NCBI GenBank assembly: GCA_045596505.1
Contig: JAZOCO010000005.1
Span: 1 to 54,185 of the forward strand
Reading direction: 5' to 3'
Source: Eubacteriales bacterium
GTDB taxonomy: Bacteria > Bacillota > Clostridia > Oscillospirales > CAG-272
DNA: 54,185 bases
Positions 10,314-51,299 of the stretch are shown in pieces. A program made the translations under genes and the position numbers. Numbering within the stretch: the first letter of the stretch is position 1; the number at the start of each line of letters is the position of its first letter. The notes under the pieces were generated by a model. The model was given only the letters and a program-made list of their open reading frames with translations. It made no database searches and had not been told where the DNA came from.

Positions 10314-10387
<74 letters not shown>

Positions 10388-10426
10388 GAGCCGTAAGAGA
10401 GTCGAGCACATAAGTCTTACGGATAC

Positions 10427-10503
10427 GCGCCTTTAGCTCAGCTGGATAGAGCAACTGCCTTCTAAGCAGTAGGTCGGGGGTTCGAGCCCCTCAAGGCGCG
10501 CCA
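10427..10503 (+). tRNA. tRNA-Arg (anticodon TCT)
   Basis: Acceptor GCGCCTT/AAGGCGC, D-arm AGCTCAGCTGGATAGAGC, anticodon loop CTTCTAA, T-arm GGTTCGAGCCC, CCA encoded. Confidence 0.9.
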
Positions 10504-10520
10504 CTGCAAAAATCAAATAT

Positions 10521-10598
10521 GGTGAGTGTAGCTCAGTTGGTTAGAGCGCCAGGTTGTGGCCCTGGAGGTCGTGGGTTCGACTCCCATCACCCACCCCA
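10521..10598 (+). tRNA. tRNA-His (anticodon GTG)
   Basis: Extra 5' G, D-arm AGCTCAGTTGGTTAGAGC, anticodon loop TTGTGGC, T-arm GGTTCGACTCC, CCA encoded. Confidence 0.85.
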
Positions 10599-11861: not shown

Positions 11862-11890
11862 AAAATTTGTGTGTTAAACTGTGATAAAGG
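11862..11890 (+). promoter_or_regulatory. Sigma-A type promoter of the T-box leader
   Basis: TTGACA (11862-11867), 17-nt spacer, TAAACT. Confidence 0.55.
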
Positions 11891-12160
11891 CAATGACCGA
11901 AAATCAGTACGCACGGACATTCCGCAAAGAGAGCTGCCGGGTGGTGTAAGGCAGCGGGGGTGCTGTGCCGAATACGTTTCGAGAGCCGCACACCCAAAGG
12001 CGCTTGCTCGGTAGGCTGTGTCGGGGGCGCCCGTTACAGCGCCGGGGCATGCTTGTGCCCAAAAGGCCGTTTTCCGCAAGGGGACGGTAAAATGAGGTGG
12101 TACCGCGTATCGCATTTGTGATCCGCCCTCAGCTTTTTTAAGCAGAGGGCGGTTTTTTTG
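11885..12160 (+). promoter_or_regulatory. T-box riboswitch leader, probable Tyr (UAC) specifier
   Basis: Contains all expected elements. K-turn (GGC-AAU-GA / GA-GCC), AGUA/GAA specifier loop with UAC at 11973-11975 followed by a purine, and AGAGA bulge. Also a distal loop GGUGGUG, F-box CCGTTA, T-box GGTGGTACCGCG (12096-12107), and terminator 12123-12152 plus T7. Confidence 0.85.
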
Positions 12161-12197
12161 TGCCTATCGTCCTCTCAAGCAAGAAAAGAAAGGATTG

Positions 12198-13853
12198 ATG
12201 ATCATGGCACCGCAAACAACTCTACTCACCACTACAACCACCACAAACGTGCTTGTCGCACTCCCCTTCATCCTGCTCTTTTTTGGGCTGATGATCTTTG
12301 TGGGCGTGTATTGCCGCCGAAACGCAACAGACGTTAACGGCTTCGTGCTGGGCGGGCGCAGCGTTGGCCCGTGGCTCACGGCATTTGCCTTTGGCACGTC
12401 TTATTTCTCCGCTGTGATCTTTGTGGGATACGCAGGACAATTTGGCTGGAACTTCGGTCTTGCCTCCACCTGGATCGGTCTTGGCAACGCCTTTATCGGG
12501 TCGCTGCTTGCATGGGTGATCCTCGGGCGTCGCACGCGCATTATGACGCAGGCGCTTGGCTCTCGCACCATGCCGGACTTTTTTGAAAAGCGCTATAAAT
12601 CACCCGCCTTGAAGATCGCCGCCTCGTTTATCGTATTCGTTTTCCTTATTCCCTACACCGCGTCGCTCTATAACGGGCTTTCCGGTCTTTTTAATTCGGC
12701 ATTCAGCGTCCCTTACTGGCTGGTCGTGGTGATCATGGCGGCGCTGACGGGCGTTTACGTCATTTTTGGCGGTTATATGGCAACTGCTGTGAACGATTTT
12801 ATCCAGGGTATTATTATGCTCGTGGGGATCGTGGCAGTGATCGCGGCGGTCCTCAATGCCAATGGCGGCGCAGGTGTGGCGATCCACAACCTCTCGCAGG
12901 TGCCCTCCACCTATCCCGAAACCGCAGGGCAAGCAGGCGCGTTTACCTCCTTCTTCGGCACGCAGCCGCTGTACCTCTTGATCGTGGTGCTCCTCACCTC
13001 CCTTGGCACGTGGGGTCTGCCGCAGATGGTTGGCAAATTCTACTCCATTAAAAACGAGGACGCCATCAAAAAGGGCACCATTATTTCAACTCTTTTTGCC
13101 GTCATCGTGGCGGGTGGCTGCTACTTTCTCGGTGGCTTCGGTAGACTTTACGCCACAAACCCCGCTATTTATAAAAACGGGATCGTCGGCGGCACGGTCT
13201 TAAACGACCGCATCGTGCCCACCATGCTCTCCACCCTCCCCGCCATTATCATCGCGCTGGTCATCGTGCTGGTGCTGTCAGCCTCAATGTCGACCCTCTC
13301 ATCCCTCGCCCTTACCTCCTCGTCTACCCTTGCGCTTGACGTGATCCTTCCCGTTATGAACAAAAAGAAGCAACGGCAAGCGAGCGAGAAAAAGTCGGTC
13401 TTTATCATGCGCCTCCTGATCGTTTTCTTCGTAGCACTTTCTGCGGTGATCGCGATCTTAAAGGACACCGTTTGGGCAGATTCCGTGTTTATCGCACAAA
13501 TGATGGGCGTTTCCTGGGGGGCGCTTGCGGGCGCGTTTCTCGCCCCCTTTCTCTACGGACTTTACAGCAAGCGCATCTCAAAGCCCGCCGTTGCCACCTG
13601 CTTTGTATTTGGCACGGGGCTTGAGATCGTACAGCTGCTCATCAGCATGAAGCTCTTTACGGTAAACGGCGGATTCCTTGGCTTTATCTTTAAAAACTCG
13701 CTCTACTCGGGTGTGTTTGCAATGCTCGCGGGCCTTGTGATCGTGCCGCTGGTCAGCGCCTTTACCCAAAAATGGGTGCCCGAGGAAGCGGACGAGATCT
13801 TCGGCTGCTTTGACCACTGCGTGACAACCGATATTACCGATTCTCTGGGATAA
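12198..13853 (+). CDS. Sodium:solute symporter (SSF) family transporter
   Basis: About 550 aa and 13 hydrophobic helices. SSF-like N-terminus GGRSVGPWLTAFAFGTSYFSAVIFVGYAG. Start is ambiguous among 12195 (TTG), 12198 and 12204 (ATG). Confidence 0.8.
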   Translation: MIMAPQTTLLTTTTTTNVLVALPFILLFFGLMIFVGVYCRRNATDVNGFVLGGRSVGPWLTAFAFGTSYFSAVIFVGYAGQFGWNFGLASTWIGLGNAFIGSLLAWVILGRRTRIMTQALGSRTMPDFFEKRYKSPALKIAASFIVFVFLIPYTASLYNGLSGLFNSAFSVPYWLVVVIMAALTGVYVIFGGYMATAVNDFIQGIIMLVGIVAVIAAVLNANGGAGVAIHNLSQVPSTYPETAGQAGAFTSFFGTQPLYLLIVVLLTSLGTWGLPQMVGKFYSIKNEDAIKKGTIISTLFAVIVAGGCYFLGGFGRLYATNPAIYKNGIVGGTVLNDRIVPTMLSTLPAIIIALVIVLVLSASMSTLSSLALTSSSTLALDVILPVMNKKKQRQASEKKSVFIMRLLIVFFVALSAVIAILKDTVWADSVFIAQMMGVSWGALAGAFLAPFLYGLYSKRISKPAVATCFVFGTGLEIVQLLISMKLFTVNGGFLGFIFKNSLYSGVFAMLAGLVIVPLVSAFTQKWVPEEADEIFGCFDHCVTTDITDSLG

Positions 13854-21878: not shown

Positions 21879-21900
21879 AATGGGCTTCCCCGCTTAAAAA

Positions 21901-21934
21901 GAGGCTGTCTCAAATGCCAATTTGAGACAGCCTC
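21901..21934. terminator. Bidirectional intrinsic terminator (CAAAT..ATTTG family)
   Basis: GAGGCTGTCTCAAAT GCCA ATTTGAGACAGCCTC, flanked by A5 and T-rich tracts. Confidence 0.8.
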
Positions 21935-21941
21935 TTTCTTT

Positions 21942-26399: not shown

Positions 26400-26484
26400 T
26401 GGTGCGGGTGACAGGGGTCGAACCTGCACGCCTCACGGCGTAAGATCCTAAATCTTATGCGTATGCCAATTTCGCCACACCCGC
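26400..26484 (-). tRNA. tRNA-Leu (anticodon TAG)
   Basis: Reverse complement gives GCGGGTG acceptor, anticodon loop TTTAGGA, long variable arm, GGTTCGACCCC T-arm and CCA. A TTGACA-N17-TATCAT promoter lies upstream on the minus strand. Confidence 0.85.
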
Positions 26485-30597: not shown

Positions 30598-30775
30598 GGG
30601 TCATTCTGAGAGTTTTTGCGGGTCACTCTGAGGGCTTTTGCTTTTTGTGGGTCATTCTGAAGATTTTAACAAAAAATCCGAAGGATCTCCGAAAACGCAA
30701 GAAGCGTTTTCGGCGGTATGTTCGCACTAAATCCATTTAAAGCCTTAAAGTAACATTCAGCCAAGCAAAAGCGAT
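30598..30775 (+). repeat. GGGTCAYTCTGAG tandem units plus conserved ~100-nt module (locus A)
   Basis: Core motif at 30598, 30620 and 30649. Then CCGAAGGATCTCCGAAAACGCAAGAAGCGTTTTCGGCGGTATGTT, identical to 34028-34072, and CCTTAAAGTAACATTCAGCCAA, identical to locus B. Confidence 0.85.
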
Positions 30776-33852: not shown

Positions 33853-33879
33853 TTGTTTTCCCACATAGGCCCCTTTTAG

Positions 33880-34320
33880 AATCCTCCTGAGAGCTTTGCT
33901 TTTTCGCGAGTCATTCTGAGGGCTTCAACACACATTTAGGGTCATTCCGAGTTTTTTTACTTTTTGCGGGTCATTCTGAGGATTTTTACTTTTTGTGGGT
34001 CATTCTGAGGGTTTCAACAAAGAAACCCGAAGGATCTCCGAAAACGCAAGAAGCGTTTTCGGCGGTATGTTAGCACTAACCCTTTTACTGCCTTAAAGTA
34101 ACATTCAGCCAAATAAAAGACCGGTGCAAACACACCGCGGCGCGATCGTATTTATCGCGCCGAGATCCTTCGACTCGCCTTTGTTGGCTCGCTCAGGATG
34201 ACCCGAAAGAGGCGGCGTTACACACCGCGCCCTCGGCTGTGCCTTAGTCGCAAAAAGCCTACCCTCGCCTTTATGACGCGAAGAGGCTGTCTCAAATTCG
34301 CATTTGAGACAGCCTCTTTA
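33880..34320. repeat. Mosaic repeat locus B: five tandem GGGTCATTCTGAG-type units, the conserved ~100-nt module, an inverted hairpin arm, and a reversed fragment of the cotJ-flanking repeat
   Basis: Cores at 33908, 33939, 33968 and 33997 (29-nt period), with a degenerate unit near 33885. Module at 34028-34114. Reverse arm GAGATCCTTCGACTCGCCTTTGTTGGCTCGCTCAGGATGACCC at 34162-34204. Hairpin at 34281-34318. Confidence 0.85.
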
Positions 34321-34343: not shown

Positions 34344-35993
34344 TTACCTTGCGCGCAGATCCTTTACAAAATCTGCCAGGTTTGTCTGAATAGCACTAAG
34401 GTTCTGGTTTACAACCGTGCTCCAAGGTGTACCGTCTATTGCGGCATACATAACCTGCGTATCCATCGAGAAGTAGCCGGAAGGATCAAGCACAAAGCCA
34501 AGCACACGACCAAGGTCAAACTCGATAGAGGAGCGAATGATCTCACACATATCTGCTTCGCACTGTGTGGGAGATGCCTTCAGCTTCATACCAAGCTCGA
34601 AGATAACGGGCGTGGTCTTGCGGAATCCCTCACTTGCCCAACACTCAAGCACAGCAGTAAACATAGTAAGGGTTGCTTCCTCATCTCCTCTTGTATCGAA
34701 ATCGTTGAAGATGGAGTACAGCGAGAACTCGTTACCAATGGAGGTGTAGTAGTTCTTCTGGTTTGTATCCCACTTCGGAGAAGGCAGAACACCGTAGGCA
34801 GGAACCTTAGCACTGTTCACAAGCGTGCTGCCTGCGTATGACATGTAATACATTGAGAAGAAGCACTTACCATTCGTAAAGGGCTTCATCATGCTGGTGC
34901 CGGTCTTATATCGGTTATGGTAATCATTCGAAGAAAGCAGACCGTTCAGCTTTGCGATCAGCTTAATGGTCTTAGAAGAAGACCAGTCGTCAGAGATCTT
35001 AAGGCCGGAGCCATCGGTAGTGGACTCGATCATACGAAGGTTACAACCACAGTATATCGGCACCATTTGGTAGTCAGAACCGGTAAAGCCGTACGTATCA
35101 TCACCCGTCAAGCCGTCACCGAGAGTGTCCTCATAAGCATCGGAGGAAAGACGAATGAAGTCATCAATGGTCCACTTGCCTGCATAAACCATCTCATAGA
35201 TCATATTAGAGGCAGTGTTGCCACCCTCGGGATTCTCCTTAGATACAGTCTCTGCGGTTTTCACGTGACCGTTTTTTGCAAAGTATTCCTCCGCCTCCCC
35301 CTGAAGCTTGGCGTTGACCAGCTTCTTGTTGAAGTAGATGTTTTGCATGTTATAGATGGTGCTGGTGGACATATCGCCGGAAACAAAGTAAAGGTTGCCG
35401 TCCATGGAAAGATTGTCGACGATATTAGAGGGCCACCAGGGCTTGCTGAGTTCAATGTAGCTGTTCTCGATACCGGAAAGATTCCACAAAAGATCATTGA
35501 TGACCATTTTGGCACCGGCACGTGCGTAGGCTGCGAGAAGATCGAAGTCGTGCGTGCCGCTATCCTTAGCGCGCTGCACACGAGCAACGTAGGTGTTTAT
35601 GTCACCGGAGTCGCCGGGCTCGGAAGAAAATACAAGCTCGACGTCAAGGCGATCCTGAATTGCCATATTGCGCTTGTAAATAGAAGAAAGGGCGTCGTCG
35701 TCCACCTCTTCGGTCTGCTCGAACTCTTTGGGTCCGCCGAGCCAATACAGCATCGAAATAGGCTGGTCATAATTAAGTTCCTCGTCGGGCAGGTTGTCGT
35801 ACACACGCCAAGTACCCCACTCGTCCTCTGCCCATCTTACGCCATTCTCATCAACTCTTACGTTGACATCATAGCCGCCCTGTTTCTTTTTCTTATTGTT
35901 GTTACAAGCAGAAACAGCCAACAAGCAGAACAAGCAGGCCAGCAAAAGGCAGATCACGCGTACAGTGTTTTTCATCGTTCTCTGCTCCCACAT
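34344..35993 (-). CDS. ABC transporter extracellular solute-binding lipoprotein (orphan; no permease genes adjacent)
   Basis: Lipobox LLAVSAC after a hydrophobic signal. About 545 aa, typical of large family-1 SBPs. GGAGGGAG RBS 9 nt before the ATG at 35993. Confidence 0.65.
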   Translation of the reverse strand: MWEQRTMKNTVRVICLLLACLFCLLAVSACNNNKKKKQGGYDVNVRVDENGVRWAEDEWGTWRVYDNLPDEELNYDQPISMLYWLGGPKEFEQTEEVDDDALSSIYKRNMAIQDRLDVELVFSSEPGDSGDINTYVARVQRAKDSGTHDFDLLAAYARAGAKMVINDLLWNLSGIENSYIELSKPWWPSNIVDNLSMDGNLYFVSGDMSTSTIYNMQNIYFNKKLVNAKLQGEAEEYFAKNGHVKTAETVSKENPEGGNTASNMIYEMVYAGKWTIDDFIRLSSDAYEDTLGDGLTGDDTYGFTGSDYQMVPIYCGCNLRMIESTTDGSGLKISDDWSSSKTIKLIAKLNGLLSSNDYHNRYKTGTSMMKPFTNGKCFFSMYYMSYAGSTLVNSAKVPAYGVLPSPKWDTNQKNYYTSIGNEFSLYSIFNDFDTRGDEEATLTMFTAVLECWASEGFRKTTPVIFELGMKLKASPTQCEADMCEIIRSSIEFDLGRVLGFVLDPSGYFSMDTQVMYAAIDGTPWSTVVNQNLSAIQTNLADFVKDLRAR

Positions 35994-38098: not shown

Positions 38099-38249
38099 AA
38101 TTCTCACCTCGCTTACAGCCTATGAGCCGACCGCCCACTCGGTGCATATGATGAAAAGGGGGAGCAACGGTTCTTACATTTTTCAACACGAGGAGATATG
38201 CTATGAAGATCGTACTGATGAAATCGCCCGCTGTGCTGGCACCTATACT

Positions 38250-38534
38250 TCGAAGGATCTTTCACATTCGGAAACGATAAAAGTGCAAAAGGGGCTGTCG
38301 CAAGTGAAAATTTACGACAGCCCCCTATTCTATTCTTTGTATCATCTTAAGCACCATGTTCGCACCAACCCTTTACTTTTTACGGGTCATCCTGAGCGAG
38401 CCAACAAAGGCGAGTCGAAGGATGACCCAAAAGTGTGCGTTTTCAGCGGTGAATAAGCAAGGATAGAGCCGAATGACAAACCCGCGTTATCTAAGCCAAG
38501 GGGCTGTCGCAAATGAAAATTTGCTTCAGCCCCC
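38250..38534. repeat. Mosaic repeat locus C: self-closing GGGTCATCCTGAG..AGGATGACCC hairpin flanked by two direct copies of a terminator hairpin
   Basis: Hairpins at 38291-38324 and 38500-38533 are near-identical. Arm at 38384-38428. A CGAAGGATCT fragment lies at about 38255. Confidence 0.8.
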
Positions 38535-38550
38535 GTATTTTTGCAAACGT

Positions 38551-51259: not shown

Positions 51260-51299
51260 CAAGGGGCTGCCTCAAATAAAAGTTTGAGTCAGCCCCTTG
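51260..51299. terminator. Bidirectional terminator hairpin (CAAAT..TTTGA family)
   Basis: CAAGGGGCTGCCTCAAAT AAAAG TTTGAGTCAGCCCCTTG. Confidence 0.65.

Follow-up and report, generated by a model that had tools for sequence, protein, structure and literature searches.

In canonical repetitive extragenic palindromic (REP) sequences and their hairpin-forming doublets (REPINs), short palindromic repeats of bacteria, the hairpin has at its foot a 5' tetranucleotide, GT[AG]G (PMC6006769). A different type is the CGTC-tagged REP superfamily (Di Nocera, De Gregorio and Rocco 2013), which includes the dRS3/NIME (neisserial intergenic mosaic element) repeats of Neisseria and RPE-4 and RPE-6 of Rickettsia; its units have a CGTC tag, which is often TGTC (CCTC being another variant), a perfect 8-9-bp stem with complementary A-T at its positions 1 and 2, a 4-5-nt loop and a short C-initial tail, CCA, lie downstream of open reading frames (ORFs), mostly in tandem or convergent spacers, form mainly head-to-head dimers with small hairpins at the spacer ends, and are known from several phyla with no associated transposase (PMC3733652). 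Dealt with here is a ~440-bp tract at 33880-34320 of a 54,185-nt stretch from a Eubacteriales bacterium (assembly GCA_045596505.1, contig JAZOCO010000005.1; the whole stretch is the window below), situated 3' of prmC in the spacer that separates prmC from a gene for a 549-aa protein resembling solute-binding proteins (SBP). The tract is a cluster of one small non-coding hairpin repeat family, and on balance it is probably a lineage-specific palindromic repeat of the REP, BIME (bacterial interspersed mosaic element) or NIME kind. Its layout matches that of published tagged REPs: the tag, the AT foot, the position 3' of ORFs, dimers with hairpins at the spacer ends, and no CGTC transposase (PMC3733652). 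An earlier interpretation made from the letters of this DNA alone (the sequence-only reading) had held that no known repeat family matches, which was too strong, as the units are REP/BIME/NIME-like and have an xGTC-AT foot as in the CGTC-tagged superfamily (PMC3733652).

Within the tract 3-4 decayed head-to-tail copies, or half-units, are accompanied by one intact + strand monomer and one inverted monomer. A monomer, ~85-125 nt long in alignments of 4 full copies and then of 8 (those of contigs L129 and L133 included), consists of a hairpin, U, a second hairpin, P2, immediately 3' of U, and a tail made up of GCGGTrTGTTwGCAC, kept in all aligned copies, and a T-rich stretch. The features are as follows.

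33875-33891, + strand: 5'-arm-like unit (TTTAGAATCCTCCTGAG) that has degenerated further than any other copy in the head-to-tail array, with a direct-repeat copy at 33882-33930
33908-33996, + strand: three half-units, with the 5' arm G(G/A)GTCATTC(T/C)GAG at 33908, 33939 and 33968 and then a T-rich tail (..TTTTTACTTTTTGY)
33997-34038, + strand: intact hairpin U of the + monomer, with tag GGGTC, outer stem ATTCT/AGGAT, tandem G.A mismatch (GA/GA), inner stem GGGTTTC/GAAACCC, loop AACAAA and tail CTC
34038-34062, + strand: hairpin P2 of the + monomer, a perfect 10-bp CCGAAAACGC-AAGAA-GCGTTTTCGG
34063-34119, + strand: tail of the + monomer (GCGGTATGTTAGCACTAACCCTTTTAC...CATTCAGCCAAATAAAAG), with 85% identity to 30714-30771
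34106-34137, - strand: terminator-like end of the - monomer, a small hairpin CGGTGTGTTTGCACCG and then GTCTTTTATTT, with a terminator-like site at 34137-34122
34138-34162, - strand: hairpin P2' of the - monomer, CGGCGCGAT-AAATAC-GATCGCGCCG, in the same position as P2 with an unrelated sequence
34162-34204, - strand: hairpin U of the inverted monomer (GGGTCATCCTGAGCGAGCCAACAAAGGCGAGTCGAAGGATCTC), with 98% identity to the unit at 38384-38428
34281-34318, no strand assigned: the spacer's intrinsic terminator, a 17-bp perfect hairpin and then a T-rich run, outside the U family and part of a separate terminator-hairpin family

The two U hairpins are paired tail to tail as a dimer whose arms are separated by a 123-nt spacer, the + monomer spanning 33997-34119, the - monomer 34204-34106, and the tails meeting; the - monomer ends in terminator-like hairpins with T-runs. 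Much of the visible anatomy had been described correctly before. Core motifs start at 33908 (GAGTCATTCTGAG), 33939 (GGGTCATTCCGAG), and 33968 and 33997 (GGGTCATTCTGAG at both), and Tandem Repeats Finder finds the 29-nt period over 33939-34014 (2.6 copies, 89% matches, score 117). The degenerate upstream unit that had been noted is the one at 33875-33891, and the reverse-oriented counterpart and the perfect 10-bp hairpin are likewise where they were claimed to be. At up to 2 mismatches GGGTCATTCTGAG has 9 matches in the window, well beyond chance, as 0.73 are expected and 9 are reached in 0/100 shuffles. The arms at 33997-34022 and 34179-34204 are 81% complementary, and CGAAGGATCTC (34028-34038) and GAGATCCTTCG (34162-34172) constitute a perfect 11-nt match between the inverted arms. 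The supposed ‘conserved core’ enclosed by those arms, on the other hand, is actually the P2 and tail of two convergent monomers, and the monomer is also found alone (30649-30771, and in L133). The half-units would be monomers from which deletions have removed the inner hairpin, 3' arm and P2, because in a short form present in L129 (GGGTCATTTTGAG followed by CACTATGTTTGCACTAACCCTTTTAT) the 5' arm is fused straight to the tail motif.

In the fold of U an outer stem of 5 bp is followed by a G.A/A.G internal loop (2x2) and then by the inner stem. The general signature of U is xGTC-AT-YYY-GA-[variable stem-loop]-GA-RRR-AT with the xGTC tag unpaired, and its form in the lineage alignment is a T-rich leader followed by (G)GGTCAT-YCT-GA-[inner stem, AACAAA loop]-GA-AGG-AT-CTC. 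For three copies the folding energies are -18.9, -16.2 and -26.8 kcal/mol (z -3.9, -2.3 and -6.3), the first of these being for 33997-34038 and the last for 38384-38428. A Y-GA-R context, as in both GA steps of U, favours sheared tandem G.A pairs. U and P2 both keep pairing through compensatory changes. In the alignment of 8 monomers 95.5% of cells are paired, compared with 79.7% in column shuffles (equalled in 0/500) and 35-49% with slid partners, and double-sided changes affect 9 of the 17 pairs overall and 7 of the 10 in P2, so that the conserved pairing envisaged earlier is borne out in a multi-copy alignment. P2 has the form CCGAAAACGC/GCGTTTTCGG in + copies, GGCGCGAT/ATCGCGCC in - copies and CCCAAAGTGC/GCACTTTCGG in the copy L129a. 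The inner stem of U goes from GGTTTC/GAAACC at 33997 to GATTTT/AAAATC at 30649, i.e. two G-C to A-T double changes, and is CGAGCC/GGCGAG in the - copy.

The family has three loci in the 54-kb window, that at 33875-34204 and the following two, which had escaped the sequence-only reading.

30598-30771, + strand: second locus, with half-units at 30598 and 30620, an intact U at 30649-30689, an identical P2 at 30689-30713 and a tail
38345-38470, + strand: third locus, with a tail-like motif (CACCATGTTCGCACCAACCCTTTAC), U at 38384-38428 with a perfect 10-bp outer stem, and a degenerate P2/tail

The second is placed where the ddl terminator on one side faces, on the other, the stop codon of a convergent aldehyde dehydrogenase gene, and has 85.5% identity with 33935-34119 over 186 nt; the third is bracketed by two copies of a terminator hairpin. 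A metagenome scan for the composite CGAAGGATCTC..GCGGTRTGTT yielded 12 stretches, 11 of which are chance matches inside coding DNA. The one real case, L129, is another contig, in which half-units, two + monomers and one inverted monomer are found behind an unrelated gene (an acetyltransferase by eye, this being annotation only). As L129 871-1094 has 86% identity to window 33983-34206 over 225 nt, the same tail-to-tail dimer is present at an unrelated locus and thus recurs as a unit, which supports the sequence-only reading as far as the ~210-nt module with inverted arms is concerned. Viral contigs gave one match only and a plasmid collection none. Each of the 8 lineage monomers reads in the same sense as the gene that it follows. 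With copies at the two further window loci, in L129 and in L133, the earlier claim of a multi-copy non-coding family in 3' intergenic space is upheld. Tandem half-units with a 22-29-nt periodicity could have suggested local replication slippage or duplication near the terminator with no family behind it; that possibility, to which hardly any credence can be given, is refuted by the dispersed copies, namely the three window loci, L129, L133 and at least 118 loci elsewhere.

The recurrence of the dimer is also pertinent to the proposal that the tract is a classical miniature inverted-repeat transposable element (MITE), derived from a DDE-type insertion sequence and moved by cut-and-paste, with the 45-nt arms being transposase-binding terminal inverted repeats. 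Inverted arms around a 123-nt interior, the same module in L129, and the direct ATGA repeats that flank elements in Omnitrophota (below) are all compatible with it. However, the arms differ in their inner stems and yet each is self-complementary, with compensation within an arm and not between arms, which argues that they are independent hairpin units rather than MITE termini. Further, monomers or solo U units exist on their own (30649-30771, 38384, L133). Neither the dimer of the window nor that of L129 shows a target-site duplication, a related insertion sequence did not turn up, and the arm signature is common to several phyla, unlike insertion-sequence ends. Such an origin is improbable, and of the MITE-like unit first suggested the inverted arms and their self-folding stand while the terminal-inverted-repeat interpretation is not supported.

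Contigs syntenic with the window were reached through homologues of the 549-aa protein. In four of these (L134-L137, SBP identity 59-64%) the prmC-SBP spacer is just 48-95 nt with one bidirectional terminator, and no U motif is present in 37 kb; this makes the tract, in a spacer of 491 nt that has the full cluster, an insertion or expansion specific to the lineage, in what was ancestrally a short spacer. In L133 (SBP identity 71%), the closest relative whose spacer can be read from end to end, 328 nt contain half-units and one monomer, with the inverted partner absent. In L132 (74%) the contig breaks off inside the region, with tail-like sequence at its end and the 5'-arm motif absent from the 90 nt that the contig includes. 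The spacer between the aldehyde dehydrogenase gene and ddl is 61 nt in L134, where it lacks the element, and 252 nt in the window, where it has it.

Two side aspects of these spacers deserve comment. L132 is the closest relative by SBP identity, and its contig ends within the array at the tail-like sequence, on the SBP 3' side, which suggests that the repeats break short-read assemblies. The aldehyde dehydrogenase-ddl spacer has in two other relatives grown to 370 nt by different repeats (L135:5243-5612 and L136:10696-11066), those of L135 including multiple GTGAAGTT/AACTTCAC motifs, and it seems to be a hot spot for repeat build-up.

Hairpin U on its own has a much wider distribution. A scan for GGGTCATYCTGAG-N8-32-CGAAGGAT with one genome per species, the arm sequences being forced by the pattern and the ORF calls heuristic, found at least 118 loci with the U signature in at least 12 phyla, with ~14 chance matches estimated for the whole collection; the intact window U at 33997-34038 fits the pattern. 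By record title the taxa include Acidobacteriota, Omnitrophota, Planctomycetota, Verrucomicrobiota, Bacteroidota and Balneolales/Rhodothermales; within Bacillota, Oscillospiraceae, Christensenella, Peptoniphilus and Syntrophomonadaceae; and Gamma- and Betaproteobacteria, ‘Deltaproteobacteria’, Binataceae, Saccharibacteria and Dehalococcoidia. Inner hairpins, which span 8-30 nt, are self-complementary with differing sequences, often with extra GA or GGA purine loops. In 36 of 50 units from the same loci with arms other than those scanned for, all three variable stem positions are Watson-Crick (CCC/GGG, TCT/AGA, TCC/GGA, GCT/AGC). The base before GTC, in copies where the pattern does not force it, is T in 47, C in 19, G in ~19 and A in 12, and 3' tails over 218 units are CTC (76), CTG (35), CTT (30), CCC (21), CTA (19) or CCA (6). 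Among the matches listed, most units are 0-130 nt past a stop codon; 62 have the orientation of the upstream gene and 23 the opposite one, convergent spacers number 20 and divergent ones 6, and the 58 neighbouring unit pairs comprise 38 tail-to-tail, 10 head-to-head and 10 head-to-tail. Copies from one genome or lineage share the inner hairpin and even flanks (e.g. L022, L029, L100), which fits proliferation within a genome. As a separate observation, partial units in tandem, their 5' arms or 3' halves recurring at short spacing before or behind a full unit, are present in L052 (Pirellulales), L034 (Gammaproteobacteria), L089, L098 and L117; the ‘half-site array’ is thus general to the family and not special to this genome.

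How U stands in relation to the described families can now be considered. It shares with canonical REP/REPIN sequences, which are mobilized by the Y1 HUH enzyme RAYT (REP-associated tyrosine transposase, TnpA-REP; PMC6006769, PMC3116915), a short and imperfect palindrome whose foot bears a conserved tag, the recurrence of inverted dimers as units, 3'-intergenic location and lineage-specific sequence families; dispersed imperfect palindromes, often as inverted dimers, are what the three loci in 54 kb and the 58 neighbouring pairs amount to. It differs in that the tag is not GT[AG]G (no GTAG or GTGG is present at the foot, where units start (G/T/C)GTCAT) and in that no RAYT or REPtron-like arrangement was found in the DNA examined. 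With the CGTC superfamily it has in common an unpaired tag of the looser form xGTC (GGTC in window units, with T and then C commonest before GTC in unforced copies), an AT...AT foot in all units, a C-initial tail, location 3' of ORFs, dimers, several phyla and no linked transposase. Against this, U has a 5-bp stem, an invariant tandem G.A mismatch and an inner stem of 6-8 bp with, in the window, a 6-nt loop; its inner hairpin is long and variable, its tail is CTN instead of CCA, and its dimers are mostly tail-to-tail (38, compared with 10 head-to-head), the window dimer included. Of the kinds described, U is closest to the CGTC-tagged REP superfamily, though not counted as a member of CGTC-1 to CGTC-4. 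The pipeline of that study dropped stems with >1 mismatch, and Clostridia are unmentioned there (PMC3733652), for which reason the U type is missing from its catalogue. The peptides listed there for intragenic copies, e.g. VIPAKAGI and DSRFRGND (PMC3733652), can be read as back-translating to GTCAT...ATC units laid out like U.

As with E. coli BIMEs and Neisseria NIMEs, palindromic units and short modules (P2, tail) form a mosaic in which complete, partial and inverted copies occur together, though unit sequences differ and the monomer here has a second hairpin and a T-rich tail. Like MITEs such as the Correia elements of Neisseria, the repeats are small, non-coding, intergenic and with inverted ends, and MITEs of that type are co-transcribed with neighbours; unlike them, the repeats have no defined target-site duplication and no known parent insertion sequence, and each of their arms is a hairpin of its own. 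A full-text literature search for the literal motif retrieved only primers and unrelated genes. In Rfam 15 no family overlaps the window units, whether the limit is the gathering score or E up to 10, and none matches 18 loci from many phyla at gathering score.

Other candidates tried were rejected. A CRISPR or type III toxin-antitoxin array would not have a repeat part of 13-20 nt with a period of 22-29 nt, no unique spacers, and prmC and an SBP-like gene as flanks. By reading of the sequence, the units have the CUGA and GAA of a hammerhead ribozyme without its CUGANGA core and the tandem G.A of a kink-turn without its 3-nt bulge, and they lack the RYYYAAC/GTTRRRY boxes of an integron attC site. 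A promoter array was dismissed as there are no promoter-like matches inside the tract.

Several considerations weigh against a REP-like mobile repeat. None of the 39 window ORFs scanned, which are housekeeping or without Pfam match, is a transposase, integrase or reverse transcriptase. No recurrent neighbour family emerges when 879 ORFs from the at least 118 loci are clustered, the largest cluster covering 10 loci. In a search for a REPtron-like gene the only unit-bracketed ORFs were for a tetratricopeptide repeat (TPR) protein, gluconate dehydrogenase subunit 3 and peptidase M15. A RAYT (Y1 HUH) gene was found neither in the window ORFs, nor among neighbours at the other loci, nor in ORFs bracketed by units, and the autonomous partner element that the sequence-only reading had looked to, like a target-site duplication, did not materialize in the DNA examined. 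That duplication is not definable at the insertion sites, as the empty sites of relatives are too diverged for junctions to be mapped, and none is seen at the window and L129 dimer junctions. Copy number in the source organism is a count within the 54-kb window only (3 loci). The 8 copies include only two main P2 sequence types, which leaves few independent events behind the covariation. The + monomer is without a convincing terminator. Finally, G.U pairs are not commoner on the sense strand (32, compared with 42 antisense, in a test of G.U versus A.C strand asymmetry), and RNA-level selection is thus not demonstrated; in outer stems the 7 T.G and 2 C.A are too few to count.

The strand question is central to a different possibility, that the units are functional structured RNAs in 3' untranslated regions (UTRs), with U and its invariant tandem G.A being the site for a conserved RNA-binding protein or RNase, and with copy number reflecting selection and not mobility. 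Several of the features above speak for it: the excess of units co-oriented with the upstream gene and their depletion in divergent spacers, the uniform sense orientation of the lineage monomers, and the invariance of the G.A positions while the stems covary. In addition, the sense strand folds better than the antisense (mean -12.2 versus -9.8 kcal/mol), and units overlap genuine start codons in Omnitrophota. Counting the other way are the empty Rfam result, the lack of G.U strand asymmetry, the presence or absence of the insertion at orthologous housekeeping loci, decayed copies and inverted partners typical of selfish repeats, and flanking genes that are functionally unrelated. The co-orientation bias could equally stem from a strand-specific insertion mechanism. 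We regard this alternative as unlikely. For the structured-RNA option of the sequence-only reading the signs are mixed, the co-orientation bias favouring sense transcription but G.U usage showing no strand asymmetry.

For a palindromic repeat of the REP/BIME/NIME kind, the history probably ran as follows. Monomer copies were inserted downstream of the prmC stop codon, ahead of the old bidirectional terminator, and piled up head-to-tail, the upstream ones later losing hairpins to become half-units, and one further copy, inverted, gave the tail-to-tail dimer. U may be extruded as a single-strand hairpin, the purine-rich strand folding better than its complement, and may be copied in trans by an enzyme encoded elsewhere, the best guess being, by analogy with REP/REPIN, a single-stranded DNA nuclease of Y1/HUH type. 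Sense copies in 3' UTRs would be transcribed, and as stable hairpins at the 3' side they could shield transcripts or terminate them; such a role would explain why copies there are tolerated.

A broader and quite tentative idea, about as doubtful as that of functional RNAs, is that U is a pan-bacterial nucleic-acid module, either a REP-like superfamily without linked transposase or a 3'-UTR/intercistronic RNA motif, whose invariant, sheared tandem G.A core would be recognized by a widely conserved enzyme or binding protein and which has been built into gene junctions of Omnitrophota and Planctomycetota, supplying ATG and often TGA. The junctions in question, mostly in Omnitrophota with some in Planctomycetota, are those in L013, L049, L074 (e.g. 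L074:5780-5860), L091 and 11 others, where a unit is positioned exactly at a gene start. The ATG of ...GTCGAAGGATGA is a genuine start, Pfam L13, FGGY_N and RuvA_N matches beginning at residues 14, 3 and 1, respectively, and the L13 match at profile position 1. In 7 of the 15 gene-start cases the stop codon of a long upstream ORF is the TGA within an ATGACCC ~21 nt ahead of the unit. Direct ATGA repeats flank the element there, the element supplies stop and start, and the AU of AUG is paired in the outer stem. The U 3' arm is reminiscent of a Shine-Dalgarno sequence (AAGGA), and the 5' arm has a loose likeness to the 16S 3' end, which is only an idea.

REP-type repeats are well studied in Proteobacteria and hardly described in Clostridia. 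Here a family has been caught expanding between close relatives at housekeeping loci, providing clean insertion polymorphisms for work on mechanism, and its presence in at least 12 phyla without a linked transposase reopens the question of what copies CGTC-like palindromic repeats and whether they act as DNA or RNA. From a practical perspective, units break metagenomic assemblies and create spurious short ORFs.

As to the genes flanking the tract, which are convergent, the identity of prmC is secure (TIGR03534, 236.7 bits versus a cut-off of 199.1). Neither Pfam nor NCBIfam has a match for the 549-aa neighbour itself (34344-35993, - strand), and an exact-protein look-up returned no record for it; its SBP label rests only on distant homologues (30-38% identity) with PF01547/PF13416 (SBP_bac_1/8). 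Most of its relatives are annotated as hypothetical, the named ones being from metagenome-assembled genomes of Clostridia and Oscillospiraceae.

Distinct from the U family is the second repeat family of the window, the terminator hairpins (AAGAGGCTGTCTCAAAT..ATTTGAGACAGCCTCTT and GGGGCTGTCGCAAnTGAAAATTTnCGACAGCCCC), found at 21899-21937 and 34281-34318. Related copies are at 38290-38325, 38499-38535 and 51260-51296; copies of the family are near-identical and follow unrelated genes. Ahead of one terminator, at 38203-38280 (+ strand), is a 25-aa ORF (MKIVLMKSPAVLAPILRRIFHIRKR) with a GAGGAG ribosome-binding site, divergent from asnB; its identity in the syntenic relatives L134 and L136 is 84-88%, and in all probability it is a genuine small gene or encodes a leader peptide. 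Elsewhere in the window Rfam detects three consecutive tRNA genes (10314-10595), a tRNA on the - strand (26403-26484), and a T-box leader (11884-12133) upstream of a sodium:solute symporter-family gene (12195-13853).

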